Origin: a bacterium
GTDB lineage: Bacteria > Patescibacteriota > Microgenomatia > UBA8517
Assembly: GCA_030583725.1 (NCBI GenBank)
Contig: CP129472.1
Coordinates: 142,958 to 206,957, forward strand
DNA: 64,000 nt
Direction: 5' to 3'
Shown: in pieces, positions 40,256-52,525 of the stretch
Position numbering within the stretch: position 1 is the first letter of the stretch
How the letters are laid out: the number at the start of each line of letters is the position of its first letter
Notes under the pieces: model-generated
The model's input: only the letters and a program-made list of their open reading frames with translations
Databases searched by the model: none
Told to the model about the DNA's origin: nothing
Position numbers and translations under genes: made by a program

Positions 40256-40513
40256 CTAATCTGAATATGTCTTTCCGACGACAATACCCTCTATTATTGA
40301 TCCGTCTTTAATATCCAGTGTCATGATTTCATGACAAACTTCACCAAAAAACGTTTTTGGGATGCTAATATGGCAAGCTACACGCGTTGCTACTGTCGAT
40401 CGGTCTACAGGATGACCCTTGTCTTGTGATATAACAACTTTACATTTGTTACAAATTACAAGATGGCCAGTTGAGTCCTTAACTGAAGTGATAGAAATAA
40501 TATCCTTTGACAT
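40256..40513 (-). CDS. hypothetical small protein with CxxC pair
   Basis: 85 aa from ATG 40513 (MSKDIISITSVKD...); 'VICNKCKV' and 'ACH...CHE' possible zinc-ribbon. Confidence 0.3.
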   Translation of the reverse strand: MSKDIISITSVKDSTGHLVICNKCKVVISQDKGHPVDRSTVATRVACHISIPKTFFGEVCHEIMTLDIKDGSIIEGIVVGKTYSD

Positions 40514-40683
40514 TTGGGTTATTATAGGTAGCGAAAGGCACAGAATCAATCACTTTCTAAAATGATGCCTAAGTTTGTCCCACTTGACTTCAAATCAAAT
40601 CTAATATAAATTGCGTTTAGCTTCTAAACACTTATAATTTTTTATAAAGTGACTTGCCCTTCAGAAGATTTTAAAAAATATGA

Positions 40684-41223
40684 TTGGTGGTGAATAATTT
40701 GAAATTTAACTTAAAAAAGACATTGAAAGCTATTAAACTTAATGAATCTTCAATTTCCATGGTCTTAGGTCTAATTGTTGTTTTAATTGTAGGAAGTTTG
40801 ACAGTTAAGTATTTGAGAAATGACAGTGGAAGAATCCCTGAAGAACTATTAAACAACTCAATCGAATCTACAACTAAAAAACATACTGTGGCAAAAGGTG
40901 AAAATCTTTGGATTTTGGCAGAAAATTACTATGGTGATGGTTTTAAATGGGTAGATATTGCAACTGAAAACAAATTAGAAAATGCATCTGTTATAGAAGA
41001 GGGGCAAGAATTGATAATTCCTAACCTTGAAATTGCAGAAGTAGAACAAACAGAGAATGCAATTACCTCAGCAACATATGAAGTAGTAAAAGGTGATTCA
41101 CTTTGGGATATATCAGTCAGAGCATATGGAGATGGTTATAGATGGGCAGACATTGCAAAAGCAAATAATATTGCTAATCCAAACATAATCCACTCAGGAA
41201 ATATACTTGTACTACCTAGGTAA
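40684..41223 (+). CDS. membrane-anchored protein with two LysM peptidoglycan-binding domains
   Basis: TM 'MVLGLIVVLIVGSLTV'; LysM 1 'HTVAKGENLWILAENYYGDGFKWVDIA', LysM 2 'YEVVKGDSLWDISVRAYGDGYRWADIAKANNI'; start ambiguous (TTG 40684 / GTG / later ATG). Confidence 0.7.
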   Translation: MVVNNLKFNLKKTLKAIKLNESSISMVLGLIVVLIVGSLTVKYLRNDSGRIPEELLNNSIESTTKKHTVAKGENLWILAENYYGDGFKWVDIATENKLENASVIEEGQELIIPNLEIAEVEQTENAITSATYEVVKGDSLWDISVRAYGDGYRWADIAKANNIANPNIIHSGNILVLPR

Positions 41224-41261
41224 AAATTGTTTTTAGATGAGGTAAAGATATATAATAATCT

Positions 41262-41390
41262 CGCTAAACAGCGGGGTATGAAATTATGTTTCATACCTAA
41301 AGTCTCTGCGGGATTAGTTAAACAGTCTAACACCTCCTTCCCAAGGAGGAGAAACGAGTGCGACCCTCGTATCCCGCTCAAAATTAAATT
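41262..41390. ncRNA. GC-rich structured RNA candidate in a convergent intergenic gap
   Basis: 11-bp long-range helix AGCGGGGUAUG(41269-79)/CGUAUCCCGCU(41377-87) with two G-U pairs, competing 10-bp local hairpin GGUAUGAAAU/GUUUCAUACC, 7-bp CCUCCUU/AAGGAGG hairpin; strand unresolved. Confidence 0.3.
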
Positions 41391-42430
41391 TAGTCCGTAT
41401 CTTCGGACAATTCTAGTGATTTGATATCAGGCAGTGCCCTTCCTGTTACCCCTTGAAGATCTCCATACATCCCATGAGTATGGTCAATTACTTTTCTAAT
41501 TTCTTTTTCTTGCCTTGCCCATTTGCTACTAAACCACCTTTTTTCTTTTTCTATATCTTCTTGCATGGTTCCAAAGGCTTCTACGATTCCTTCTACTCTA
41601 TGTTTAAATTCATTTCCAGTCAAATACTCATACAACACCTTCATTTTTTCATCTACGTTGGTGGCGTTTTGTTTTTCATGATAGATATTCACAAGATTGA
41701 ATCGTAGAGACATGGCAAGAAGTGTAAAATTACTAATATTACAAACCCAAACCCCATCTTTAAAACCAACACCTTTATCTTTTAAGTCTTCTGGCAAATT
41801 AATTGAGACTAGGACTGCAAGGTCAGCCTTGGCCTGTCTTTGATCTTCTTTAAGTTTGGTAATCCAAGTATCACTCCATTTTGCATTTTTACTTTCCCAG
41901 ATTATGTTTCCGCAATTTCTGCCTAATTTATCAACTACGGTCTGGATTACATCAGCACCCCTAACACCTTTTTTAACTTCATTAATTTCATCATTAGGAA
42001 ATTCCTGTTTTAATTTAGTCTCAATTGTAAGTTCAAGTGTTTCTCCTTGTGTTTGTTGTGATCCTTGATTAGCTTTCTTTTGTGCTTCTTCAAGTGATTT
42101 TTTAAGGTCATTAATTAATTTTTCTTTTTCTACATCTTTTAACTGATGTTCTTCTGCAGCTTTTTTCCTAGCTTCACTTCTGATTGTGTCTTCACTCTCC
42201 ATTAGTTTCTTTTTCATCTCTACTTCTCTCATTTCATCTTTTTCACGCAGGGTTTTTATTTCATCAAGAAGTTTGCCCATATCTGACGTGAATTTTCTTC
42301 TAACTTCATCAACCTCATTTTGGGCTTTTTTACGTTCTTCTAAAATTATGGAGTCTTTAATATCATGGGCTAGTTGCTCAGCAACATCAATTATATTCCC
42401 ACATTTATTACATTTAACAGTATTTGCCAT
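41390..42430 (-). CDS. zinc-ribbon/coiled-coil protein with C-terminal PD-(D/E)xK-like nuclease motif (DUF2130-like), MGE-associated
   Basis: N-terminal 'CNKCGN', long Lys/Glu coiled coil, C-terminal 'GADVIQTV...GNIIWESKNAKW' (D...E-x-K). Confidence 0.5.
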   Translation of the reverse strand: MANTVKCNKCGNIIDVAEQLAHDIKDSIILEERKKAQNEVDEVRRKFTSDMGKLLDEIKTLREKDEMREVEMKKKLMESEDTIRSEARKKAAEEHQLKDVEKEKLINDLKKSLEEAQKKANQGSQQTQGETLELTIETKLKQEFPNDEINEVKKGVRGADVIQTVVDKLGRNCGNIIWESKNAKWSDTWITKLKEDQRQAKADLAVLVSINLPEDLKDKGVGFKDGVWVCNISNFTLLAMSLRFNLVNIYHEKQNATNVDEKMKVLYEYLTGNEFKHRVEGIVEAFGTMQEDIEKEKRWFSSKWARQEKEIRKVIDHTHGMYGDLQGVTGRALPDIKSLELSEDTD

Positions 42431-42433
42431 AGT

Positions 42434-43252
42434 TTATTTTTTGTTTTTCAATTTTAAATAATTTCTGCCAGTTACCACTTTTTGGTTTGTTTTTGATTCT
42501 AAGTCAAGCCTTGCTCGTTTCGCTATTCTACCACCTTTAACAGCAGGAATTTTATTCTCTTTAAAGCCAACTGCATTTTCTGCTTCTGAAATTTGCCTTG
42601 TTGAAAGTTCAGCTAAAGCAGTAAATATCAATTCAGCATCAGACATGTGATCTCTTAAATTTTGATTAGCCAGACCTTTTAGGTTTTTGTGCTCCCTAAC
42701 TGTCAAATCGCTCCACTCTTGATGGATGATGTTTGTTAATATTGCATATTCATTTTCCTTTTTAACCTTGTGATCCTTCCAGTAATCTGTCAACTTGTTT
42801 CGTATTTCCTGACCCATCATTCTCTGCTGTATCCATTTTTGGCTCCTACCCATTCTTTGCCAGTAGTCCCGAGCCCGGTTTAAAGACCTTTCAGGATCTG
42901 ACATATCTTGAATTCTTTGATGGCCTACTTTTGCCAGCCAAAGTTTAATCGGCTCGGCTTTTGGAGATGTAACAGACTGGATTAAACGAAACAAAGTTTC
43001 AACGTCAGCAGCATCAGTCAAGTATTTCTTGCCATCAGTTGAGATCATTTTCAGTTGTACGATTTTTTCGTACACCTTACTATTTTCCAACTTTAACTTA
43101 CGTTTTAGATCAGATAGATATCGTTTTGGAATACTGCTTTCAGTGAGCAAGCCAATTATATCCACTACAGAAAAAAACCATTTTTCTTGTTTTTCATCCC
43201 AATGCCTGCGAATATTTTTTCCTTTAAATATTACTAAATCCTTGGAGGTCAT
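42434..43252 (-). CDS. Bro-N domain protein (phage antirepressor/DinD-like)
   Basis: 'DLVIFKGKNIRRHWDEKQEKWFFSVVDIIGLLTES' Bro-N signature; start at MTSKDL. Confidence 0.55.
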   Translation of the reverse strand: MTSKDLVIFKGKNIRRHWDEKQEKWFFSVVDIIGLLTESSIPKRYLSDLKRKLKLENSKVYEKIVQLKMISTDGKKYLTDAADVETLFRLIQSVTSPKAEPIKLWLAKVGHQRIQDMSDPERSLNRARDYWQRMGRSQKWIQQRMMGQEIRNKLTDYWKDHKVKKENEYAILTNIIHQEWSDLTVREHKNLKGLANQNLRDHMSDAELIFTALAELSTRQISEAENAVGFKENKIPAVKGGRIAKRARLDLESKTNQKVVTGRNYLKLKNKK

Positions 43253-43325
43253 AATTAACAATAACCCCAAGATAATACGAAGTCAATATACATAATCTGT
43301 CAAAAACTATATAATTCCTATGTAC

Positions 43326-43398
43326 GCCGGGGTAACTCAGCTGGTAGAGTAGCTGTATCGTAAACAGCAAGTCGTGAGTTCGAATCTCACCCTCGGCT
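43326..43398 (+). tRNA. tRNA-Thr (anticodon CGU)
   Basis: GCCGGGG-TA-ACTC-AGCTGGTA-GAGT-A-GCTGT-ATCGTAA-ACAGC-AAGTC-GTGAG-TTCGAAT-CTCAC-CCTCGGC-T; all stems pair (one G-U in acceptor); CCA not encoded. Confidence 0.85.
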
Positions 43399-43402
43399 CA
43401 AA

Positions 43403-44762
43403 ATGCTTACAAAATCAGACTTTTTATTATTTTTAAAAGCTCCACTACATCTCTGGGCCAAGAAACACAAAAAATTAGACAAAAAGACCCCCTCTGCATA
43501 TGAACAACATTTAATGAAGCAAGGATATGATGTTGAAAAACTTGCAAGAAAACTATTACCTCACGCAGTTTGGCAAAAACCATATATTACTGATGAACTA
43601 GAAATCAGGCAGGATGCATTAATCAAGTTTGATGATGGTAGCGCTAATTTATATGAAGTTAAAAGCTCAACAGAAGTGAAAAAGGAACATTTGTTTGATT
43701 TAGCCTTTCAAGCAATTGCCACAGAAGAAAAGGTAAAACTTAAAAAAGTTTTCACGGTTACTATAAATAAGGATTATGTCAAAAAAGGTGAAATTGATGT
43801 TAACGCATTTTTTGTAATTACAGACTTAACAAAGCAAATTAGGGAATTAAAACCAGTAGTGCAAGAAAAGATTCTAGACGCCATAAATGTAGCAAATAAA
43901 GAAAGTAAAGACTATATAGAAAACTGCCTAAACCCCAAAACCTGCCCCTGTATTAATCTCTGCTATCCAAATCTACCGGAGAAATCAATTTTTAATATAC
44001 CCTACTTAAATTACAAAAAGAAAAGAGAGTTAGTAGATATGAAAATACTAGACATTACAAAAATTCCAGAGAGTATTGAGTTAAACGAAAAACAAAAAAG
44101 AGTAGTCACAGTAATTTCAAACAACAAGCCATACTTAAACAGTCAAAGATTAAAAGAGTTTTTAGATTCTTTTACATATCCAATTTACTTTTTAGACTAT
44201 GAAACATATTCACTAGCAATACCAATTTATAATAACTACAAGCCATATCAACACATGGTTTTTCAGTATTCACTGCACATAGTAAATAATGATGGAACAG
44301 TAACACATAAAGAGTATTTAGAAACTGAAACAGGAGACCCATCAAAAAATTTAATTAAAAAGTTAAAAAAAGACATAGGCCCAGTTGGCTCAGTCGTTTC
44401 ATGGAATAAACAGTTTGAATGTAGCAGAAATAACGATATGGCACTTCTCTACCCTGAATATAAAGAATTTTTAGAAGGTATTAATAATAGAATGATTGAC
44501 CTTGCTGATTTCATAAACAAAGAAATATATATTCACCCAGACTTTTTTAGGTAGCTGGTCTATCAAAAATGTTTTACCTGTCATGGTTCCTGAGCTTTCC
44601 TACAAAAAATTAAAAGTAAACAAAGGAGACCAAGCAATGTTAACTTGGTGGGAGATGGTAAATAGTAAAACGAAAAGTGAAGCAAAAGATCTCTTGGAAT
44701 ACTGTGCTCTCGATACCCTCGCCATGGTTAAAATTTGGGAAAAGCTAAAAACAATCTTATAA
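43403..44762 (+). pseudogene. Cas4/RecB-like PD-(D/E)xK nuclease fused to DEDDy-type 3'-5' exonuclease (DUF83-DUF2779 architecture), interrupted by a frameshift in a T6 run
   Basis: N-terminal 'DALIKFDD...LYEVKSS' + 'QAIA' + Cys cluster 'CLNPKTCPCINLC'; exo motifs 'FLDYETYS', 'SWNKQFE'; track ORF stops at TAG 44552 right after TTTTTT (44543-48); frame 0 continues '...MLTWWEMVNS...LLEYCALDTLAM' (Y-x3-D) to 44762. Confidence 0.5.
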
Positions 44763-44797
44763 ATATTTATCTATACATCGTGTGCTCAATAAAAGAA

Positions 44798-45589
44798 TTA
44801 TGCATTTGCTACAGTTTGAGAAGCTCTGTGCTCTTTCTTGTGCACTCGTTTGATTTGATCTGTTAGTTTGACCAACTTTTCTCTAATATCCTTCAATTCT
44901 TTTAACCTTTTCTGTATATCTGCATTGCCAATGAGTGCAGCGTGCAATCCCGTAACCCTCTGGTTTGGTGCAGACCATCCGATGTATTTGCATATTTGCT
45001 GGTCAGTCATGTTAGAAAATAATCTTCCTCTAAGATACTGAATTACCGATCTATCATTTGCAGCATCCACATTGTGCTGATGGTGATTTGCTCTGACATT
45101 TTGGTAAAGAATACCTTCCATTTTCTCTCCTAATACGTAGGCTTTTCGAGTAAGCTGATAAAAATCGTTATATTTGTTTATAAGATCGTTGTCTGGGTAA
45201 TATGCATCGTGGTTGTTTATCTGGTCAAAGTTTGCTTGATATACATCAAACAATGGATTGATGTGTGACCCATCAAAATAGAATTTATTGAGGCCGCTCA
45301 AGTTCCAAACACTTGGACCTCTATCATAAGCTTCTTGGATATCGACCAATAGCCTACGTTCATAAAATGACTTTGCCCGAGACTTGCTTGCTTGATACTC
45401 ATTTGATTCCTGAAGATAGTAAAAGATTGCAGCAATAACACCCCCGACAATTCCACCTCCGACAATTTCAGATGTTAGGTTGTCTTTCAATGATTGACCC
45501 AAAGAAGAACATAAATTGATTGCAACTATAGCCAATATGCACAAAAGCGATATTGCCGCAATAAATTTCAATAATCTTTTTTGATCCAT
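44798..45589 (-). CDS. hypothetical membrane protein (two N-terminal TM helices, Gly-zipper 'GGGIVGGVIAAIF')
   Basis: 263 aa; co-directional with and immediately downstream of the R-M cassette. Confidence 0.4.
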   Translation of the reverse strand: MDQKRLLKFIAAISLLCILAIVAINLCSSLGQSLKDNLTSEIVGGGIVGGVIAAIFYYLQESNEYQASKSRAKSFYERRLLVDIQEAYDRGPSVWNLSGLNKFYFDGSHINPLFDVYQANFDQINNHDAYYPDNDLINKYNDFYQLTRKAYVLGEKMEGILYQNVRANHHQHNVDAANDRSVIQYLRGRLFSNMTDQQICKYIGWSAPNQRVTGLHAALIGNADIQKRLKELKDIREKLVKLTDQIKRVHKKEHRASQTVANA

Positions 45590-45600
45590 AGGTTACATTA

Positions 45601-46101
45601 TTATTTGTTATATAAAATATTTGAATTATTACAAACTAACTTTGTTATACTTATATTCCATGCTCGCATTGTTTTATGCCAATGTCTGAATTTTAGAAAT
45701 TGGTCCCATGTTAATTCAAGAATCAATTTTGGCATATAATTTTTGTCGATTTGAACAAGAATTAGATATTCGAATTTCTTTTCCGGAATTTCTACATCTC
45801 CAGGATTTCCCATGCCGTGAAATACACCTGTAGTTTTGTTCGGTTCAGACATCGTTTTTATACTATATCTGTCCCCATTATTACTAGTAGCGTCAATATT
45901 TTTTGTGCCCTTTTGAACTAGTTGTAATTTAGAATAATTTGGCTTTGAGTTGCAAATTGAAACAACCAAAAACTCACCTCTGTCACCTATTATATTATTA
46001 GTTCTAACTAAACCTCTTTTTCTTAATTCAGATACTGAATTTGCATATAACAACCAAAGTTCATCATTTGATACTGAATCTAGATCATCCATCTTTATCA
46101 A
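45601..46101 (-). CDS. small nuclease-fold-like hypothetical protein
   Basis: 166 aa; 'IGDRGEFLVVSI...LQLVQKGTKNIDA...RYSIKTM' loosely fits a PD-(D/E)xK/Hjc-Mrr-like core; 17-nt overlap with upstream gene. Confidence 0.3.
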   Translation of the reverse strand: MIKMDDLDSVSNDELWLLYANSVSELRKRGLVRTNNIIGDRGEFLVVSICNSKPNYSKLQLVQKGTKNIDATSNNGDRYSIKTMSEPNKTTGVFHGMGNPGDVEIPEKKFEYLILVQIDKNYMPKLILELTWDQFLKFRHWHKTMRAWNISITKLVCNNSNILYNK

Positions 46102-47125
46102 TTACAAGCAATGTAGATAATAAATTTTCTAGCCTTATGAAAAAGGTGTAAGGTGCAAGCAATGTATCCTCACCACCTCCACCACCACGGCTATTCGACC
46201 AGCTAACCCCAGTCAAAAAGTCACTCAGCAGGATTGAATCCCATTGCACAAATAATCTATCTTCGCGATTGTTAACTTGTCTTACATTATAAATTATAGG
46301 TATATTAATTTTATTTAGTAAATATAAATACCAAAGTATTCTTCTAGAATCCCAACCATATTGCCAACTTTGTAAATTAGTAGTGCCGTTTGATATCGGA
46401 GTTTTTTCTTTAATTTCTACAAGAAAAAGATTACTGTTTATAAAAACAAAACCGTCTAAATCTATTATTTGCCTGCCTTGTGCCTTTCGCATTACGACAT
46501 CTAAAAAATATCTCGTGGCATATATCTTTTGTAATATTTTAATATCATAGTTATTGAAATAATCAAATTGTTCTCTTTTTCTTAATGGGAATTTACGTAC
46601 TTTTTGTGTAGAAATAGAAAAACTGTTTAGGATAAAGTCAAAATTACCATTTTGGATAACATTGAATTTCCCACTCACCGCATTAAATAAATAAAAAGTA
46701 AATTTAGGCTTCAGTATATGATCTTGCGATCTTTCGGGTCGCTTACTTTTTTTTGTTTCAAATTGTTCAGTTTCCCAATCGTTTAAATTAATTTTTATAT
46801 ATAATAACTGTTTAATTTCCTCCCATGTAGACATTTTTTTATAAATATTGACGTAGTCAATTTCGTTGTCACTAGAGATTGTTGTGTAAATAAATGAGTT
46901 TTTGTCACGACTGTCACCCGATAACTTTTTTGATATAAGTTGTCCTCCTTCGAGAAACTTTGTATCAGATCTTGATTGCATAAGATTCTCAAATTCTACT
47001 TCAGCTTTAAAACCTAATACTCTTCGCTTAAAATAATCGTTGTTTGTAACCCTACTATCACTAACAGAGCTTGTCGATGAACACATTACTTTATACAAAC
47101 TTTCTATTATTTGGTTTTTAGTCAT
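46085..47125 (-). CDS. candidate type II restriction endonuclease (PD-(D/E)xK) of the M-C-R cassette
   Basis: 346 aa; 'IIDLDGFVFINSNLFLVEIKEK' = D-x(n)-E-x-K in correct spacing; sits 6 nt after the C-protein gene. Confidence 0.45.
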   Translation of the reverse strand: MTKNQIIESLYKVMCSSTSSVSDSRVTNNDYFKRRVLGFKAEVEFENLMQSRSDTKFLEGGQLISKKLSGDSRDKNSFIYTTISSDNEIDYVNIYKKMSTWEEIKQLLYIKINLNDWETEQFETKKSKRPERSQDHILKPKFTFYLFNAVSGKFNVIQNGNFDFILNSFSISTQKVRKFPLRKREQFDYFNNYDIKILQKIYATRYFLDVVMRKAQGRQIIDLDGFVFINSNLFLVEIKEKTPISNGTTNLQSWQYGWDSRRILWYLYLLNKINIPIIYNVRQVNNREDRLFVQWDSILLSDFLTGVSWSNSRGGGGGEDTLLAPYTFFIRLENLLSTLLVIDKDG

Positions 47126-47131
47126 ACAATT

Positions 47132-47356
47132 TTATAAAAAATGAGTAACCTTTGTTTTATATATTTTAGAGATTTGTTCAAGTTCAGTAATATCCAACCT
47201 ACGTTCACCTAATTCTATCTTGGAGATATAAGATTGAGGTTTACCTAATTTACTGGCAACATGTAATTGTGTCAAACCCAAACTAATTCTTAATTTTTTG
47301 AGTTTTTGTATAACCAACTTATATTTTTTTGTGTATATTAGATTAGACATGAACAA
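47132..47356 (-). CDS. HTH XRE-family controller (C) protein of restriction-modification system
   Basis: 74 aa; 'LRISLGLTQLHVASKLGKPQSYISKIELGERR' HTH_3; position between M and R genes. Confidence 0.7.
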   Translation of the reverse strand: MFMSNLIYTKKYKLVIQKLKKLRISLGLTQLHVASKLGKPQSYISKIELGERRLDITELEQISKIYKTKVTHFL

Positions 47357-47362
47357 ATAATA

Positions 47363-47394
47363 TATCCTTAATTAGGATAACCCAAAATAGGATA
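47363..47394 (-). promoter_or_regulatory. candidate C-box-like operator upstream of the C gene
   Basis: Near-palindrome TATCCTTAATTAGGATA (47363-79) plus a second direct TAGGATA half-site 15 bp away (47388-94), in the 38-bp gap between the MTase stop and C start. Confidence 0.25.
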
Positions 47395-48378
47395 TTATTT
47401 ATTGAAGAATTTTATGATATTTTTAGCAAGCGCTTTAATTACAGGTACTGCAACGCTATTGCCAAACTGTTTGTAAGCCTGCATGTCACTTACAGGGATA
47501 ATATAACTTTCTGGATAGCCTTGCAAGCGTGCGGCTTCTCTCGGTGTTATTTTCCTTGGATTTTTTCCTTTTTGTTCAATCAATATTTCTGAACCGTCCT
47601 TGTAATACCTTGCTGAAATTGTGCTTGTGTATTCAGATTCCTCATTAAACAATGAATATCCAAAACCATTTCCTTTTTCTCTGTGTTCTTTCTTTCTTCT
47701 TTGGTGACCAGCCCATAATTTATCGGAAATAGTATGTTTTGGATCAATTTCCTTATCTAAGATATTACCAAGTCTTGTTTTAGTTTTGGGCTCAATAGGA
47801 AATTTAAAATCTACATCCTCTTTAAATCCGATTATGTAGATTCTTGCTCTATTTTGAGGCAAACCAAAATCTTTTGCATTTAACACCTGATGAAAAACTT
47901 TATACCCCAGTTTTTCAAGGGTCCCTACAATAACTTTCAAAGTATTACCTTTGTCGTGCGTTCCCAAATTTCTTACGTTCTCAAGAAAAACAACCTTTGG
48001 TTTGTGATGTTCCACAATTCTAGCAATATCAAAAAAGAGTGTTCCTCTGATGTCTCCAAACCCTTTCTTTAAACCTGCCTGAGAAAATGGCTGGCAAGGA
48101 AAACCTGCGAGCAAAACATCAAACGGTGGTATTTCTTCTGCTTTAATTTTGGTTATATCACCATATGGGACTTCCCCAAAATTAGCACTATAAGTTTTTT
48201 GTGCATGACTATCCCATTCAGAGGAAAAAACACATTCACCATCAACACTTTCAAATCCTAATCTAATTCCACCAATACCTGCAAATAAGTCTATAAATTT
48301 AAATTTTCCTTTTTTCTCTTTTTTAGATGGATTACTAAACAAATCAGTTAAAATTATTGGTTGCTTAACGTTAGCCAT
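47395..48378 (-). CDS. DNA (cytosine-5)-methyltransferase
   Basis: 327 aa; motif I 'FIDLFAGIGGIRLGF', motif IV 'GFPCQPFSQAG', motif VI 'ENVRNL', C-terminal motif X. Confidence 0.9.
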   Translation of the reverse strand: MANVKQPIILTDLFSNPSKKEKKGKFKFIDLFAGIGGIRLGFESVDGECVFSSEWDSHAQKTYSANFGEVPYGDITKIKAEEIPPFDVLLAGFPCQPFSQAGLKKGFGDIRGTLFFDIARIVEHHKPKVVFLENVRNLGTHDKGNTLKVIVGTLEKLGYKVFHQVLNAKDFGLPQNRARIYIIGFKEDVDFKFPIEPKTKTRLGNILDKEIDPKHTISDKLWAGHQRRKKEHREKGNGFGYSLFNEESEYTSTISARYYKDGSEILIEQKGKNPRKITPREAARLQGYPESYIIPVSDMQAYKQFGNSVAVPVIKALAKNIIKFFNK

Positions 48379-48483
48379 TCACTAATTCTAGCATTTTTGA
48401 CGTCAAAATAGTTAGGAATTACTACGGTTTTTATTCACTCCCCTACTCTTGCGAAATGTTTTTTTAAGGTATATAGTTATTAT

Positions 48484-49404
48484 ATGGATGATTTGCTGGA
48501 AGATGCAGTAAATGTTTGTATTCAATATGACAGAGCTTCTGCTTCACTTCTGCAAAGAAGATTATCAATAGGTTACGCCAGAGCTGCTAGAATTATTGAC
48601 CAACTAGAGTCTGCTGGTGTACTTGGTATGTCTGATGGTAGCAGTAAACCTCGGGAAGTTTTAATTAAATCATATAAAGAATTTAAAACAAAAGATGATC
48701 ATGGGTTAGTTGCTGAAAAGAAAGATGAGTTTAAAGAAACTTCTAAGGAGTATACTCCAATTGTTGCAGATTTTTTAACTGATGATATTAAAAAATTATT
48801 AAAACCTACTGACTTACCATATATAAAAAATGACCTTACCCGAATTGGTAATTTAATTGTCACAGGGAACGTGATTAGTAAAAAGTATGAATATATAAAA
48901 ACTTATTTACTGTTTTTACTTTCAAAGTTTAATTTGTCTGATGTTAGAGTAATAATTGATGACGGGACTGGAAAACTTAAAAAGTTTGGCAGTATCCCAC
49001 ACCTTTTAACTTCCATTATTGATAAATCTGAAGAATCTCTTTCATCACTTCGCTGGCTAAGTCGAGAAATGGATAGAAGAATTGAAATAATTAATAAAGA
49101 TGATAAAACCACTTTTCCTGAGATTATTTACATAGGAAATATATTCAGTTTCTATAACAGTGATATTGAATATGCAATCAAAAGAATTTCTTCAATGGGT
49201 GCATATGCAAAAATTCATTTAATTTTGCTTGGTGATAGACTTGGTGACTTTCCAAAACAAATCAAAGACAATATCCCCGCAAGACTTGAGTTTAGTAAAT
49301 TTGGAGAAGCTGAAGCAGTATTTAGTTTTAAGGAAAAAATAAAAATTAGAATAACTGAATTAGACAAAGTGAAAGTTATAGATTATTTAGCAAATCTTAG
49401 CTAA
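48484..49404 (+). CDS. FtsK/SpoIIIE-family protein with N-terminal gamma (wHTH) domain and degenerate beta (RecA-like) domain - predicted pseudo-ATPase
   Basis: aa 1-60 match FtsK-gamma (DDLLEDAVNVCIQYDRASASLLQRRLSIGYARAARIIDQLESAGV...PREVL); downstream region aligns to FtsK beta (SDVRVIIDD...IPHLLTSII...LRWLSREMDRRIEII; KIHLILLGDRLGDFPKQIKDNIPARLEF) but Walker A is GNVISKKY and Walker B is IGNIF. Confidence 0.6.
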   Translation: MDDLLEDAVNVCIQYDRASASLLQRRLSIGYARAARIIDQLESAGVLGMSDGSSKPREVLIKSYKEFKTKDDHGLVAEKKDEFKETSKEYTPIVADFLTDDIKKLLKPTDLPYIKNDLTRIGNLIVTGNVISKKYEYIKTYLLFLLSKFNLSDVRVIIDDGTGKLKKFGSIPHLLTSIIDKSEESLSSLRWLSREMDRRIEIINKDDKTTFPEIIYIGNIFSFYNSDIEYAIKRISSMGAYAKIHLILLGDRLGDFPKQIKDNIPARLEFSKFGEAEAVFSFKEKIKIRITELDKVKVIDYLANLS

Positions 49405-49420
49405 TTTAGCCTCAAAACTA

Positions 49421-49449
49421 TTGACAAGCGCTTGCTATGGTGGTAATAT
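49421..49449 (+). promoter_or_regulatory. consensus sigma70-type promoter TTGACA-N17-TAATAT
   Basis: -35 TTGACA 49421-26, 17-nt spacer, -10 TAATAT 49444-49; predicted TSS ~49456. Confidence 0.5.
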
Positions 49450-49455
49450 TCTATT

Positions 49456-49586
49456 GAAGCGTACACTAATAACTTAAGTAGTGCCTTAATGTTCCCTCGG
49501 AATATCCGGGACGTTAAAGTTAAGGGTAAACATTATTTAAGACGTCGCTTCACCAATTTACTCAATCTTCGGATTGAGTTTTTTGA
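49456..49586 (+). ncRNA. candidate ~130-nt small RNA (unknown family)
   Basis: Bounded by the promoter above and the terminator below; 5' GAAGCG (49456-61) pairs with CGCUUC (49546-51) as closing helix; internal CCUUAA/UUAAGG and CUCGG/CCGGG hairpins. Confidence 0.4.
49560..49585 (+). terminator. rho-independent terminator
   Basis: CUCAAUC-UUCG-GAUUGAG followed by UUUUUU. Confidence 0.55.
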
Positions 49587-49647
49587 TTTTCAGAACTGTA
49601 ATTTTTATTTAAAAGATTAAATAGTGTATAATTATTTTTAAAGTATT

Positions 49648-49962
49648 ATGAAATTTTCAATTAGACTTCTATATTTATATCTTTTTTCTTTCATTGGGCT
49701 GTTAATTGCTGTGATTGGATCAGTTCAACTTGTTGATTTAGGACTAAAAATATATCTTTTCCAAGATGCTGACAAATATGAATATGCAAGACCTGTAAAG
49801 TTAGAAGGTATGGAAGAAGTAAACTATGAGGAAGAACAAAAAATGGCAGATAGGGAAAACACCAGACAAAGGCAAAGACAAGCTTCAAACGCCATTGCTA
49901 TGATTTTAGTTGGTTTCCCTCTATATAAATATCACTGGAAGCTACTTCAGAAAGAAAAATAA
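49648..49962 (+). CDS. small two-TM membrane protein
   Basis: 104 aa; TM1 'LLYLYLFSFIGLLIAVIGSV', charged loop, TM2 'AIAMILVGFPLY'. Confidence 0.4.
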   Translation: MKFSIRLLYLYLFSFIGLLIAVIGSVQLVDLGLKIYLFQDADKYEYARPVKLEGMEEVNYEEEQKMADRENTRQRQRQASNAIAMILVGFPLYKYHWKLLQKEK

Positions 49963-49964
49963 AT

Positions 49965-50141
49965 TTAATTTTTCTCTAATTGTTTTTTAAGAAGTTTGTA
50001 TACGTTTTTCTTTGTTTCTTCAACTGTCATACCCCACTCTCTGGCCATTTCTTCAAAAGAAGCATCAGTTAAAGATGCACCTTTTACATCGGGCTTACCC
50101 ATATTGTCATCTGGAATATCGCATCCGCAATTGAAACACAT
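49965..50141 (-). CDS. 58-aa Cys-rich small protein (below the ORF-track size cutoff)
   Basis: Hand translation: MCFNCGCDIPDDNMGKPDVKGASLTDASFEEMAREWGMTVEETKKNVYKLLKKQLEKN; fills the 195-nt gap between two annotated genes. Confidence 0.3.
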   Translation of the reverse strand: MCFNCGCDIPDDNMGKPDVKGASLTDASFEEMAREWGMTVEETKKNVYKLLKKQLEKN

Positions 50142-50157
50142 ATGATATTATCATACT

Positions 50158-50883
50158 ATGCAGTTTAAACTTGTCAAGAAGTTGGACGAGGCAAAAGGTA
50201 CAAAGACTTTTGTTTTTAGACCCAATGAAAAAATTAATTTTGAAGCAGGGCAATATATATACATTACCCTTCCCAAATTAAACTATCCAGATGCAAGGGG
50301 AGAAACACGCCACTTTACAATCTCAAACTCCCCAACTGAAGGAGATGATATAAAAGTTACTACCAGAATGAGGGAGGAATCAGGATATAAAAAAACCTTG
50401 GATGAACTTTCCGTTGGCACAGTTGTAGAGGGACGTGGCCCACAAGGTTTTTTTGTTTTACCTACCAACAATCCAGATAAACTAAGCCGTCCACCGCTAC
50501 CCCAAATCAATTTGTTCATTGCTGGTGGAATAGGTATTACTCCATTTAGATCAATGATTAAATATGCTATCGATAGTGGCCTAAGCACACCAATATATTT
50601 AATCTATTCAAACTCAGACAGTGATTTTGTTTTTAAAAAAGAATTAGACACATGGCAAAAAGAATACAGCAACCTAAAAATTGAGTACATAGACACATCT
50701 GTTGATGGTAGGATTGATGAAATTAAATTAAAAAAACTTATTAATCAGTGGAATTTAGTTATAGTCAATTTTACTGCTTGGGTTGTTGGTCCCAATCCAT
50801 TTGTTGATGCAGTGGAAGAATTACTTGTAAACTTAAACATCTCAGAAGATAACATTAAGTCAGAAAAATTCACTGGATATTAA
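50158..50883 (+). CDS. FAD/NAD(P)-binding oxidoreductase of the ferredoxin-NADP reductase family
   Basis: FAD motif 'RHFTISNSP' (R-x-Y/F-S/T), NAD motif 'LFIAGGIGITPFRSMI'. Confidence 0.75.
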   Translation: MQFKLVKKLDEAKGTKTFVFRPNEKINFEAGQYIYITLPKLNYPDARGETRHFTISNSPTEGDDIKVTTRMREESGYKKTLDELSVGTVVEGRGPQGFFVLPTNNPDKLSRPPLPQINLFIAGGIGITPFRSMIKYAIDSGLSTPIYLIYSNSDSDFVFKKELDTWQKEYSNLKIEYIDTSVDGRIDEIKLKKLINQWNLVIVNFTAWVVGPNPFVDAVEELLVNLNISEDNIKSEKFTGY

Positions 50884-50907
50884 AAAAATGTATCCTAATA
50901 CAAGCAA

Positions 50908-51228
50908 CTAGTCATCATATTTTCCGTTAATTATATCCACCAATCTTTCTCTATCAATCCTGCCCTTGTTATCTATACAAACATCGTCTATTTGAATTAT
51001 TTGAGAAAGGGTGAAGCCATCCCTTAGTAAATCGCCCAAAGCTTTTAAAAATCTATTTTTCATTCCAATTTTGGAGTCACCGCACCTTGTCTCAAACCTC
51101 TCCTTAACTTCTTCAGGCAAAACTTCAAAAACACTATTCGAATCCGACAGAGTCGGATGAATGGCTTCATTTATTCTTCTAGGGGACACATTAACCCTTA
51201 TTTCAAGCAAGCGATCTCTTAAACTCAT
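50908..51228 (-). CDS. hypothetical protein
   Basis: 106 aa, last gene of a three-gene minus-strand unit with the Cas4-like nuclease. Confidence 0.3.
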   Translation of the reverse strand: MSLRDRLLEIRVNVSPRRINEAIHPTLSDSNSVFEVLPEEVKERFETRCGDSKIGMKNRFLKALGDLLRDGFTLSQIIQIDDVCIDNKGRIDRERLVDIINGKYDD

Positions 51229-51288
51229 ATCAATTGCTATATATTCTTTGGAGCAGTACTGTATTCTAAAGTAAACTTATATCTATTT

Positions 51289-52113
51289 CTAGAGTATATA
51301 AATATCTTGCCTTGTATCTGACTCACCAACCTTTTCACCCTCACCACGAAGTATCCTTTCAAGAGGTCTGCATTTGATACATCCTTTGTGGGGACAAACA
51401 AAATGGTTAAGTTGTCTTGCTAGTTTTATTCTTCTACCAATTGTTAATATTTTTTCTTTTGATTCTTCATAGTTAGGGAGTTCTTTTTCTGTTAGTTCCT
51501 TGCTTTTGTCCAAATACCAGTATGAAGCCTTAGATACCGGTCTTGATTGTGTATTTGTTGCAAGTAACAAATAAATAGGAAGCTGTAGCGACTCACTGTC
51601 TTCTTCATTTTTTCCTGTCTTAAAATCAATAATATGCACTGAATCTCTTTTTTCTATATATTCCAACCAATCAATTTTTCCGCAAAGAATTATGTCATCC
51701 TCCTCAGACAAATAATAATTAGGTATAAAATCAGACTGGATTTTTACAGCTTTATTTAAAAGCGGTCCTGGATTGTCTTCAACCATTTTAAGCATCTTTA
51801 AACCTCTCTCCTTAAAACCCTCCTCTTCATCAACTGATTTAAACCCTCCCACTTTTCCTGTCACTTTTTTCCAAGCAACCTCAAATTTTTTTGAAAGAGG
51901 TATTTTGAACCTTTCACCAACAGGTAATACTGATAATGACTCAACCACATCATGAACCACTTGACCCAATGAAAGTGCAGGTGAGGTAACAGTTATTTTA
52001 TTTCCAGTATTTGGGTCTTTATATACATTTCTCAAGTAGTATGCCCTGGGACAAGATAAAAAGTCAGATATTGAAGAATGACTAACCCAGACCGCCTTAT
52101 ATTTGTCTTTCAT
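51289..52113 (-). CDS. stand-alone Cas4-like PD-(D/E)xK nuclease with C-terminal Fe-S Cys cluster
   Basis: N-terminal 'SISDFLSCPRAYYL', 'ILCGKIDWLE...VHIIDFKTGK' (D / D-x-K), 'LQLPIYLLL' (Q-x3-Y), 'FVCPHKGCIKC' (C-x4-C-x2-C). Confidence 0.7.
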   Translation of the reverse strand: MKDKYKAVWVSHSSISDFLSCPRAYYLRNVYKDPNTGNKITVTSPALSLGQVVHDVVESLSVLPVGERFKIPLSKKFEVAWKKVTGKVGGFKSVDEEEGFKERGLKMLKMVEDNPGPLLNKAVKIQSDFIPNYYLSEEDDIILCGKIDWLEYIEKRDSVHIIDFKTGKNEEDSESLQLPIYLLLATNTQSRPVSKASYWYLDKSKELTEKELPNYEESKEKILTIGRRIKLARQLNHFVCPHKGCIKCRPLERILRGEGEKVGESDTRQDIYIL

Positions 52114-52117
52114 TGAG

Positions 52118-52525
52118 TCATTTTACACTATTTCCGAATTTCTTTTTTCTGCTTTCTAAATTTTTCTTTAATGCCCTTGTCAACTGATTTTTTTGACTTC
52201 GGTTGAGTATCTTTCGCACATCTTCCTCAGATAATGGTTGACCTGGAACTCCCGAGACAAATACAACTGAATTATCCTCTAGAACAAGAGCGCTGACTCT
52301 AGGTGAAACCGACTTATATATGTTACCAACTTCAACAGGTACAGACTCACCATTTATTTGGTAGGTTTGAGAAACCAATGGTTCTGGATCTATGTCACCA
52401 TAGCCAACAACACTACCTTTCTTGTTATACTTTCTCAAGAGCTCGGTCAACGCTTCCTCGTTTTTTATTTGAGCTTGGATTCTAGCTTTATTCTTTCCCA
52501 AAATCTGTGTTCTTTCTTTTGACAT
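52118..52525 (-). CDS. hypothetical protein
   Basis: 135 aa, immediately upstream of and co-directional with the Cas4-like nuclease (4-nt gap). Confidence 0.35.
   Translation of the reverse strand: MSKERTQILGKNKARIQAQIKNEEALTELLRKYNKKGSVVGYGDIDPEPLVSQTYQINGESVPVEVGNIYKSVSPRVSALVLEDNSVVFVSGVPGQPLSEEDVRKILNRSQKNQLTRALKKNLESRKKKFGNSVK

Follow-up and report, generated by a model that had tools for sequence, protein, structure and literature searches.

A Type II restriction-modification operon with a BisI-family nuclease gene and a gene for a two-pass membrane protein in a bacterium of the Microgenomatia

The five-gene operon

Contig CP129472.1 (GenBank assembly GCA_030583725.1) comes from a bacterium of the lineage Patescibacteriota; Microgenomatia; UBA8517. 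We analyzed its positions 142,958 to 206,957 on the forward strand, a stretch of 64,000 nucleotides (nt) that we call the window and whose own coordinates are used below. On the minus strand of the window, from 48378 down to 44798, five co-directional genes form an array (Table 1). They encode a C5 cytosine methyltransferase (M), a small controller protein (C), an endonuclease that we refer to as R346, a protein of 166 amino acids (aa) from the BisI family of nucleases, and a membrane protein of 263 aa, TM263. A reading of the bare sequence, below called the original prediction, had described this place as a tRNA-associated island where a restriction-modification (R-M) cassette and its flanking genes make up a composite defence locus with undescribed components. 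As we read it, the system is of a known kind, R-M with a putatively methyl-dependent nuclease as a backup. What is new is the recurrent arrangement of BisI-like genes in such operons, together with the TM263 family and its links to restriction genes.

All open reading frames (ORFs) listed by the original prediction are present where it had placed them. Its M-C-R cassette is real, with Pfam and PADLOC matches and with M and R paired in other genomes too, and two further genes do ride on the R-M operon, co-directional and tightly spaced. M and C are separated by 38 nt, C and R346 by 6 nt. R346 and the BisI-like gene overlap by 17 nt (8 nt if the latter begins at its ATG), and 11 nt lie between the BisI-like gene and the TM263 gene. 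A scan for promoters and terminators returned no more sites than it did in shuffled sequence, hence it is uninformative about the boundaries of the operon.

The methylase matches the NCBIfam model dcm (1.3e-106) as well as Pfam, and the motifs FAGIGG, PCQ and ENV are seen in its alignment with M.HhaI. The two enzymes are alike in the catalytic core (1.2e-78); their target-recognition loops do not align. The target-recognition region of the window methylase is common only to its orthologues at two of the other loci discussed below (L011 and L029). Assigning a specificity through likeness to M.HhaI was dropped: the likeness ends at the catalytic core, and the window shows no depletion of GCGC (27 observed against 32.5 expected).

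The controller matches two PADLOC Control_protein models (1.4e-7 and 4.9e-6). Directly 5' of its start there is an inverted repeat, and with a further copy of TATCCTA at 47388-47394 the interval between the methylase stop and the controller start holds three TATCCT(A) half-sites. From its sequence, the inverted repeat may be an operator resembling a C-box, or it may merely be part of the ribosome-binding region.

R346 has no model in Pfam, NCBIfam or PADLOC, and no solved relative beyond the generic PD-(D/E)XK fold. The gene adjoins a C5 methylase gene in seven of nine loci examined, the flank being cut off or unreadable in the remaining two. Among seven loci from reference genomes, six have R346 directly beside a C5 methylase 58-73% identical to that of the window, and the seventh stops at a contig end; an eighth locus, L102, has the same pairing. 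The hosts are unclassified metagenome-assembled genomes (MAGs), Doudnabacteria, a Bacteroidetes MAG, single cells of Prochlorococcus and Pelagibacteraceae, and Bdellovibrionota. M and R thus keep together from one phylum to another, as mobile Type II systems do. Judged by this covariation in location across genomes, the first three genes are a genuine Type II R-M system.

R346 and a BisI-like gene occur together three times (in the window, L011 and L102), in two gene orders. An obligate pair is ruled out: only two of the nine loci retrieved with R346 have both genes (L011 and L102), and none of 80 metagenome loci retrieved with the BisI-like protein does. At L102 (1880-3110) a gene pair encoding DUF5343 and HEPN_Swt1 proteins lies directly upstream of the module of R346, BisI-like and methylase genes.

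Compared with known C-controlled Type II systems that use a C5 methyltransferase, the window has the same kinds of components: a methylase with canonical motifs, a small controller with a helix-turn-helix (HTH) domain directly 5' of the endonuclease gene, a PD-(D/E)XK endonuclease, and an M-R pairing that is kept across genomes. It differs in that the endonuclease family is without models, and in that M, C and R run in one direction with two genes appended.

Table 1. Features of the operon and its surroundings, in coordinates of the window
Feature	Position	Strand	Support
tRNA-Gly (CCC)	41308-41379	+	ARAGORN
DUF2130 protein, N-terminal CxxC and coiled coil	41390-42430	-	Pfam DUF2130, 1.6e-63
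Bro-N protein, PADLOC single-gene defence candidate PDC-S13	42434-43270	-	Pfam Bro-N, 7.1e-7
tRNA-Thr (CGT)	43326-43399	+	ARAGORN
DUF2779/UU173-family protein, frameshifted, convergent with the operon	43403-44762	+	Pfam DUF2779, 4.4e-42
TM263, 263 aa, two transmembrane helices, last gene of the operon	44798-45589	-	no family match
BisI-family endonuclease, putatively 5-methylcytosine (m5C)-dependent Type IIM, 166 aa (163 aa from the ATG at 46092)	45601-46101	-	PADLOC mREase_II PDLC03205, 2.3e-49
Type II restriction endonuclease R346, unnamed PD-(D/E)XK family, 346 aa	46085-47125	-	PD-(D/E)XK fold and pairing with M
Controller (C) protein, HTH_3 family, 74 aa; alternative ATG start at 47350	47132-47356	-	Pfam HTH_3, 2.9e-13
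Inverted repeat TATCCT-AATTA-AGGATA, directly 5' of the C start	47363-47379	-	read from the sequence
C5 cytosine DNA methyltransferase, 327 aa, first gene of the operon	47395-48378	-	Pfam DNA_methylase, 7.8e-111
FtsK-gamma protein with degenerate FtsK ATPase region, divergent from the operon	48484-49404	+	Pfam FtsK_gamma, 4.6e-24

The two added genes in other genomes

The original prediction had taken both added genes for components of no described kind. This stands for TM263, which has neither a family nor a fold match. It does not stand for the 166-aa protein, a Type IIM enzyme of the BisI family by its matches to existing PADLOC models. The model PDLC03205, which PADLOC describes as 'Type II methyl-directed restriction enzyme', covers its whole length, and three sister models match too. 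A search against solved structures gave only two meaningful matches, Eco15I and NhoI, the two crystallised enzymes of the BisI family; the match to Eco15I has a value of 5e-4 with the single sequence and of 4.8e-5 with a profile of 30 family sequences. In return, a fragment of Eco15I matches the same PADLOC models (PDLC03205, 1.6e-12). The active site of the BisI family consists of a catalytic Glu in helix 1, the Asp of a 'PD' motif and a QIK or QVK motif (PMC11347163). The equivalents in our protein, E40, D67 and K79 (the last in S77-I-K79; numbering follows the 163-aa NCBI protein, which begins three codons into the ORF of the window), do not vary among 30 homologues. Size is another likeness, as the known members BisI, NhoI and Eco15I are also proteins of about 165-175 aa with a single PD-(D/E)XK domain. 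These comparisons place the 166-aa protein in the BisI family. We infer that it is also methyl-dependent, with a specificity of the BisI type. Characterised members of the family cut within GCNGC only when two to four of the cytosines are modified (5-methyl or 5-hydroxymethyl) (PMC4926085, PMC11347163).

At least 319 BisI-like homologues were found. To see the company that this gene keeps, we took 80 metagenome loci, added the window and L011, and clustered the neighbouring genes at these 82 loci. At the 80 metagenome loci the BisI-like proteins are 43-60% identical to that of the window. A C5 methylase gene lies within 4.5 kb of the BisI-like gene in 46 of the 82 loci, and in 19 of the 31 that have at least 2.5 kb on both sides; when any marker of a C5-methylase system is counted, the number within 4.5 kb is 58 of 82. 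The linkage to R-M or defence genes that had been predicted from a single locus therefore holds elsewhere: in 50 of the 82 loci a methylase, Vsr or known restriction partner is found within 150 nt and in the same direction. Recurrence of the same gene pairs in other genomes is non-random evidence for an association.

The partners are diverse. At 45% identity the methylases beside the BisI-like gene make up at least 15 groups. The rider, by comparison, is conserved, and hence it cannot serve as the cognate endonuclease for every one of these methylases. Partner endonucleases confirmed by Pfam include R.HinP1I, R.HpaII and R.HaeII. In 26 loci a bona fide Vsr is present, and its gene is often translationally coupled to the rider. 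At two loci, L078 and L088, the BisI-like gene is preceded by a methylase system of the N6/N4 type. The arrangement in L088 (4136-7062) consists of the methylase, an endonuclease with a B3-like DNA-binding domain of the NgoFVII type, and then the BisI-like gene; accordingly, the rider is not exclusive to C5-methylase systems.

BisI itself is encoded beside an inactive C5 methylase gene, most BisI homologues are without a companion methylase, and in Bacillus subtilis T30 BisI coexists with a CCWGG methylase (PMC4926085; PMC8281217). The subfamily of the window resembles BisI in lying beside a C5 methylase gene and differs in its habitual place in operons that also encode methylases of intact appearance, Vsr and known endonucleases. 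In the literature, for which our coverage was incomplete and which is weak evidence in this respect, we found no description of the operon pattern of BisI-like, Vsr and C5 methylase genes, nor did one emerge under the name DUF6998.

At L029 (5953-10006) a methylase that has the target-recognition region of the window enzyme (74-76% identical) is followed by a non-homologous gene for 337 aa, the BisI-like gene and a serine recombinase of 496 aa. Standing where the endonuclease should be, the 337-aa gene looks like an endonuclease replacement on a mobile cassette. Large serine recombinases are also found near the BisI-like gene in five other loci (L027, L040, L041, L045 and L058), and close to TM263 homologues in L004 and L006. 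They may be the movers of both rider cassettes in bacteria with small genomes.

Another recurrent neighbour, upstream of the BisI-like gene and no more than 4.5 kb away, is the gene of a protein of about 345 aa with a Walker A motif (our cluster 8); it is present in L011, L026, L028, L031, L041 and L061. Our guess from the sequence of this protein is that it is DnaX-like, and it may mark a preferred neighbourhood for insertion.

TM263 has two N-terminal transmembrane helices, the second of them rich in glycine. Next comes a conserved helical domain, in which the motifs WNLSGxNKFYFD and RxxHHK occur, and then a long C-terminal helix; the fold is all-helical. The family is rare, with 16 close homologues and 66 cluster representatives among 1.84 billion proteins. 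No profile in four libraries matches it, even when 40 distant members are scanned, no defence database has a match, and no meaningful structural neighbour was found. TM263 was considered as an RNase of the HEPN type and rejected, because it lacks the combination of an Rx4-6H motif and an all-helical domain of HEPN fold. A phage origin was likewise rejected for both added families: neither TM263 nor the BisI-like protein has a relative among the viral contigs of IMG/VR.

What the TM263 genes do have is a habit of following nucleases. In three loci (L010, L100 and L101) the homologue sits at the 3' end of a Type I hsdR gene, in one case 10 nt after it, in one 4 nt after it and in one overlapping it by 14 nt. 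In L098 it comes 137 nt after a gene for a Res-like (Type III-like) helicase-endonuclease, and in L004 it overlaps by 4 nt the gene of an OLD-family ATPase-TOPRIM nuclease, with a serine recombinase next. The proposed linkage of the 263-aa homologues to restriction or defence nucleases is also seen in other genomes: TM263 is directly downstream of such a nuclease in five of ten other contexts, or in six of 11 with the window included.

A possible model for such a gene is offered by PrrC and RloC, soluble anticodon nucleases with ATPase domains that are embedded in Type I R-M loci. As in those cases, a restriction locus holds an additional gene, within it or at its end, from a family that keeps company with restriction genes. 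TM263 differs from them in having two transmembrane helices, no recognisable catalytic domain and no similarity in sequence or fold, and in the range of its partners, which are Type I, Type III-like, Type IIM and OLD nucleases.

Possible working of the operon and its alternatives

Starting from the observed gene order, family memberships and recurrence of the pairings across genomes, we regard the following as the probable nature of the operon: a C-controlled Type II R-M system, a BisI-family nuclease as its second prong, and TM263 as an accessory, all in one transcription unit. The C5 methyltransferase would mark the host's own sites, and R346 would cut incoming DNA where such sites are unmethylated. 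By analogy with other C-controlled systems, expression of the endonuclease is probably delayed by the HTH controller. HinP1I, HpaII and HaeII, with which the rider is associated elsewhere, are all blocked by cytosine methylation. Hence, a phage whose cytosines are heavily methylated or hydroxymethylated would escape such enzymes. Densely modified DNA that gets past the Type II enzyme might then become the substrate of the BisI-like nuclease, while the host would come to no harm, since the single methyl per strand added by its own methylase would fall on sparse sites of a different sequence. If the methylase were of the GCGC type, site geometry would place two methyls inside GCNGC only in the 9-mer GCGCNGCGC, which is absent from the window. 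TM263, crossing the membrane twice and with its conserved helical domain in the cytoplasm, would serve restriction as an accessory. If correct, a two-pronged system of this kind would account both for the bias of the rider mainly towards C5 methylases and for its coexistence with a methylase.

A comparable division of labour is known from Escherichia coli, where McrBC and Mrr lie beside the hsd genes of EcoKI in a cluster of the immigration-control type. There, too, nucleases for unmodified and for modified DNA are side by side and their coverage is complementary. The window differs in that its pair is in a single operon with overlapping frames, and in that the same small rider is found behind many R-M systems instead of being loosely grouped with them in an island.

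Several observations weigh against this interpretation. That the methylase avoids a BisI-type site is an assumption, and across the 64-kb window no palindrome of four or six letters and no GCNGC variant is strikingly depleted. The identity of the 166-aa protein to Eco15I is low. Its subfamily, which comes mostly from metagenome bins of Patescibacteria type, departs from known BisI enzymes at two places: Ser replaces Gln in the QxK motif (SIK instead of QIK or QVK), and the methyl-pocket motif is not clearly recognisable. In NhoI and Eco15I an internal methyl pocket is formed by an (H/R)(V/I/T/M) dipeptide near the C-terminus (PMC11347163); our subfamily has WH(K/S)TMRAW at that position, without an exact dipeptide and with modest confidence in the alignment. 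Furthermore, the published BisI homologues are mostly orphans, so that tight linkage to active-looking methylases is atypical and could point to another role. As to TM263, neither structure nor sequence gives a clue to its activity. In five of its ten other contexts a nuclease is missing directly upstream, where there is an HTH gene, unknown small genes, an insertion sequence element or nothing at all, and the homologues linked to hsdR form one subclade, which leaves about four independent associations with four kinds of nuclease.

What other role could the BisI-like protein have? It might be a housekeeping partner of C5 methylation and not a defence nuclease, dealing with T:G mismatches or lesions from m5C deamination together with Vsr or in its place. 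Like Vsr, it joins C5 methylases of many specificities; the translational coupling to Vsr noted above would also suit such a function, and enzymes of the BisI family accept T for m5C in their site (PMC11347163). However, the presence of bona fide Vsr genes alongside it in 26 loci means that it does not replace Vsr, an idea that we down-weighted for this reason. It also stands behind the N6/N4-type systems of L078 and L088, and the characterised members of the family are all restriction enzymes that cut both strands (PMC4926085, PMC11347163), so a housekeeping function appears very unlikely to us. It is likewise very unlikely that the protein is a conventional methylation-sensitive endonuclease, or a second R-M subunit, from which the neighbouring methylase protects the host. 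Such a role might be read from several loci (L053, L054, L036 and L071 among them) where it is the sole nuclease beside a C5 methylase, in a layout like that of M-R-Vsr, from the overlap of its gene with the R346 stop codon in the window, and from the nearest fold relative, PvuII, which is methylation-sensitive (PMC11347163). The rider is, however, 43-60% identical across loci whose methylases belong to at least 15 groups with unrelated target-recognition regions. It joins M+R pairs that are already complete (HinP1I, HpaII, HaeII), and most R346 loci do without it, hence it is not an obligate subunit.

For TM263 there is a serious alternative, namely that it is unrelated to restriction: a small membrane gene, mobile or specific to a niche, that ends up in variable regions where defence genes gather too. 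The five contexts without a nuclease upstream agree with this, as do the large serine recombinases or transposases near homologues in L004, L006 and L009 and the lack of a match in defence databases. Against it, TM263 overlaps the 3' end of a nuclease gene or lies within 137 nt of it in the window and five further contexts (two overlaps, and three cases within 10 nt), with four unrelated kinds of nuclease, and this spacing is tighter than co-residence in an island would give; relatives in viral contigs are missing as well. We consider this alternative somewhat unlikely. In our view TM263 is probably a restriction-associated accessory, most likely a membrane-acting back-up effector or a membrane tether for the nuclease rather than a housekeeping protein; the glycine-rich helix and the position at the end of the operon would fit either role. 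A bolder suggestion can be made, although we find it doubtful. TM263 might represent a new class of accessory, a membrane module set on the 3' ends of unrelated nucleases (HsdR, Type III-like Res, OLD and BisI-like), where it would either guard against neutralisation of the nuclease by phage, killing or depolarising the cell, or hold the nuclease at the site of DNA entry. The BisI-like rider, for its part, would mean dual restriction, 'unmodified plus hypermodified', within single operons of many bacteria with small genomes.

Modification-dependent nucleases are usually viewed as lone genes, ill-suited to sharing a cell with methylases. In dozens of uncultured lineages, as here, a BisI-like enzyme shares an operon with C5 methylases that look active. 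Should it be methyl-dependent, the design would be a compact one with two layers, and the need of the BisI family for several methyls in one short site would be explained as the feature that makes coexistence safe. If it is not, the BisI family has a second, unrecognised role tied to cytosine methylation. TM263 is the cleaner unknown of the two. It is rare and well conserved, and the one thing consistent about it is its place behind restriction nucleases of various types. This singles it out as a tangible candidate for an accessory or back-up role that is new to restriction systems.

Flanking genes and the question of an island

The original domain calls for the DUF2130, Bro-N, C5 methylase, HTH and FtsK-gamma proteins were borne out by profile searches, and ARAGORN confirmed the tRNA-Thr gene. 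It also places a tRNA-Gly gene, which the original prediction had missed, 10 nt from the end of the DUF2130 gene, so that the DUF2130 and Bro-N gene pair is bracketed by two tRNAs. Residues 7-277 of the Bro-N protein give a full-length match to PDC-S13 (1.7e-115), whose defence role is that of a candidate in PADLOC; phrog_15286 is matched too (4.4e-84). The FtsK-like protein has a partial FtsK_SpoIIIE domain (Pfam, 3.8e-9) with TGNVISKK at the Walker A position.

The gene convergent with the operon had been called a fusion of Cas4-like and DEDDy exonuclease parts. It is a DUF2779 protein with a Cas4-like N-terminus (the Cas4 matches are weak) and an RNase H-like exonuclease C-terminus, and to this extent the call was right; as an intact fusion it was not, since a +1 frameshift in a T-run at about 44543-44551 splits the gene into two pieces, 43403-44554 and 44583-44762. 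The two align to consecutive parts of the NCBIfam model UU173, and the second, an ORF of 59 aa, is the C-terminal end of the family. Deleting one T from the run gives a continuous frame, DFLGSWSIKNVLPVMVPELSY, and the conserved GSWSIK...VPELSY motif is regained. The split is either a true frameshift, making a pseudogene, or a homopolymer error of sequencing or assembly.

That all these genes belong with the R-M operon to one composite defence locus is not supported. For the DUF2130, Bro-N and FtsK-like genes there is no evidence of a functional link, their tie to the operon being proximity alone. DUF2779 is the only flanking gene whose proximity recurs: a DUF2779 gene is near the BisI-like gene at four other loci (L056 9996-11480, L079 737-1019, L084 6534-7958 and L096 3-224), and in all of these but L056 the two are directly adjacent, which hints at a recurrent association.

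It might be that the whole segment of 41.3-49.4 kb is one mobile element, integrated at the tRNA genes, whose integrase was lost afterwards. Two tRNA genes do lie in its left part, its content is of the accessory type with core genes on either side, its R-M module is spread over distant phyla, and the related cassette in L029, with another gene in place of R346, is followed directly by a large serine recombinase. Nevertheless, as the original prediction had already remarked, there is no integrase or recombinase, either among the genes of the segment or in those ORFs of 110 aa or more between 27 and 60.6 kb that were scanned with Pfam. The claim of a tRNA-associated island also fails to find an att site, as no direct repeat derived from either tRNA occurs in 40500-52500, and the proportion of G+C does not clearly deviate, being about 0.33 in the window and 0.30-0.36 within the segment. 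We therefore think a single element quite unlikely. The region is plainly accessory in content, and its status as an insertion is unproven.

The left flank encodes DnaE, GatB, GatA, an M48 peptidase, LemA and PolX; the right flank encodes an oxidoreductase, a PDDEXK_1/Cas4-like protein and polysaccharide genes. For the most part, the named relatives of the genes at the locus come from bins of Patescibacteria or the candidate phyla radiation (CPR). The PDDEXK_1/Cas4-like protein of the right flank, another PD-(D/E)XK protein, has 274 aa, is encoded at 51289-52113, 2 kb to the right of the region, and matches PDDEXK_1 and, weakly, Cas4.

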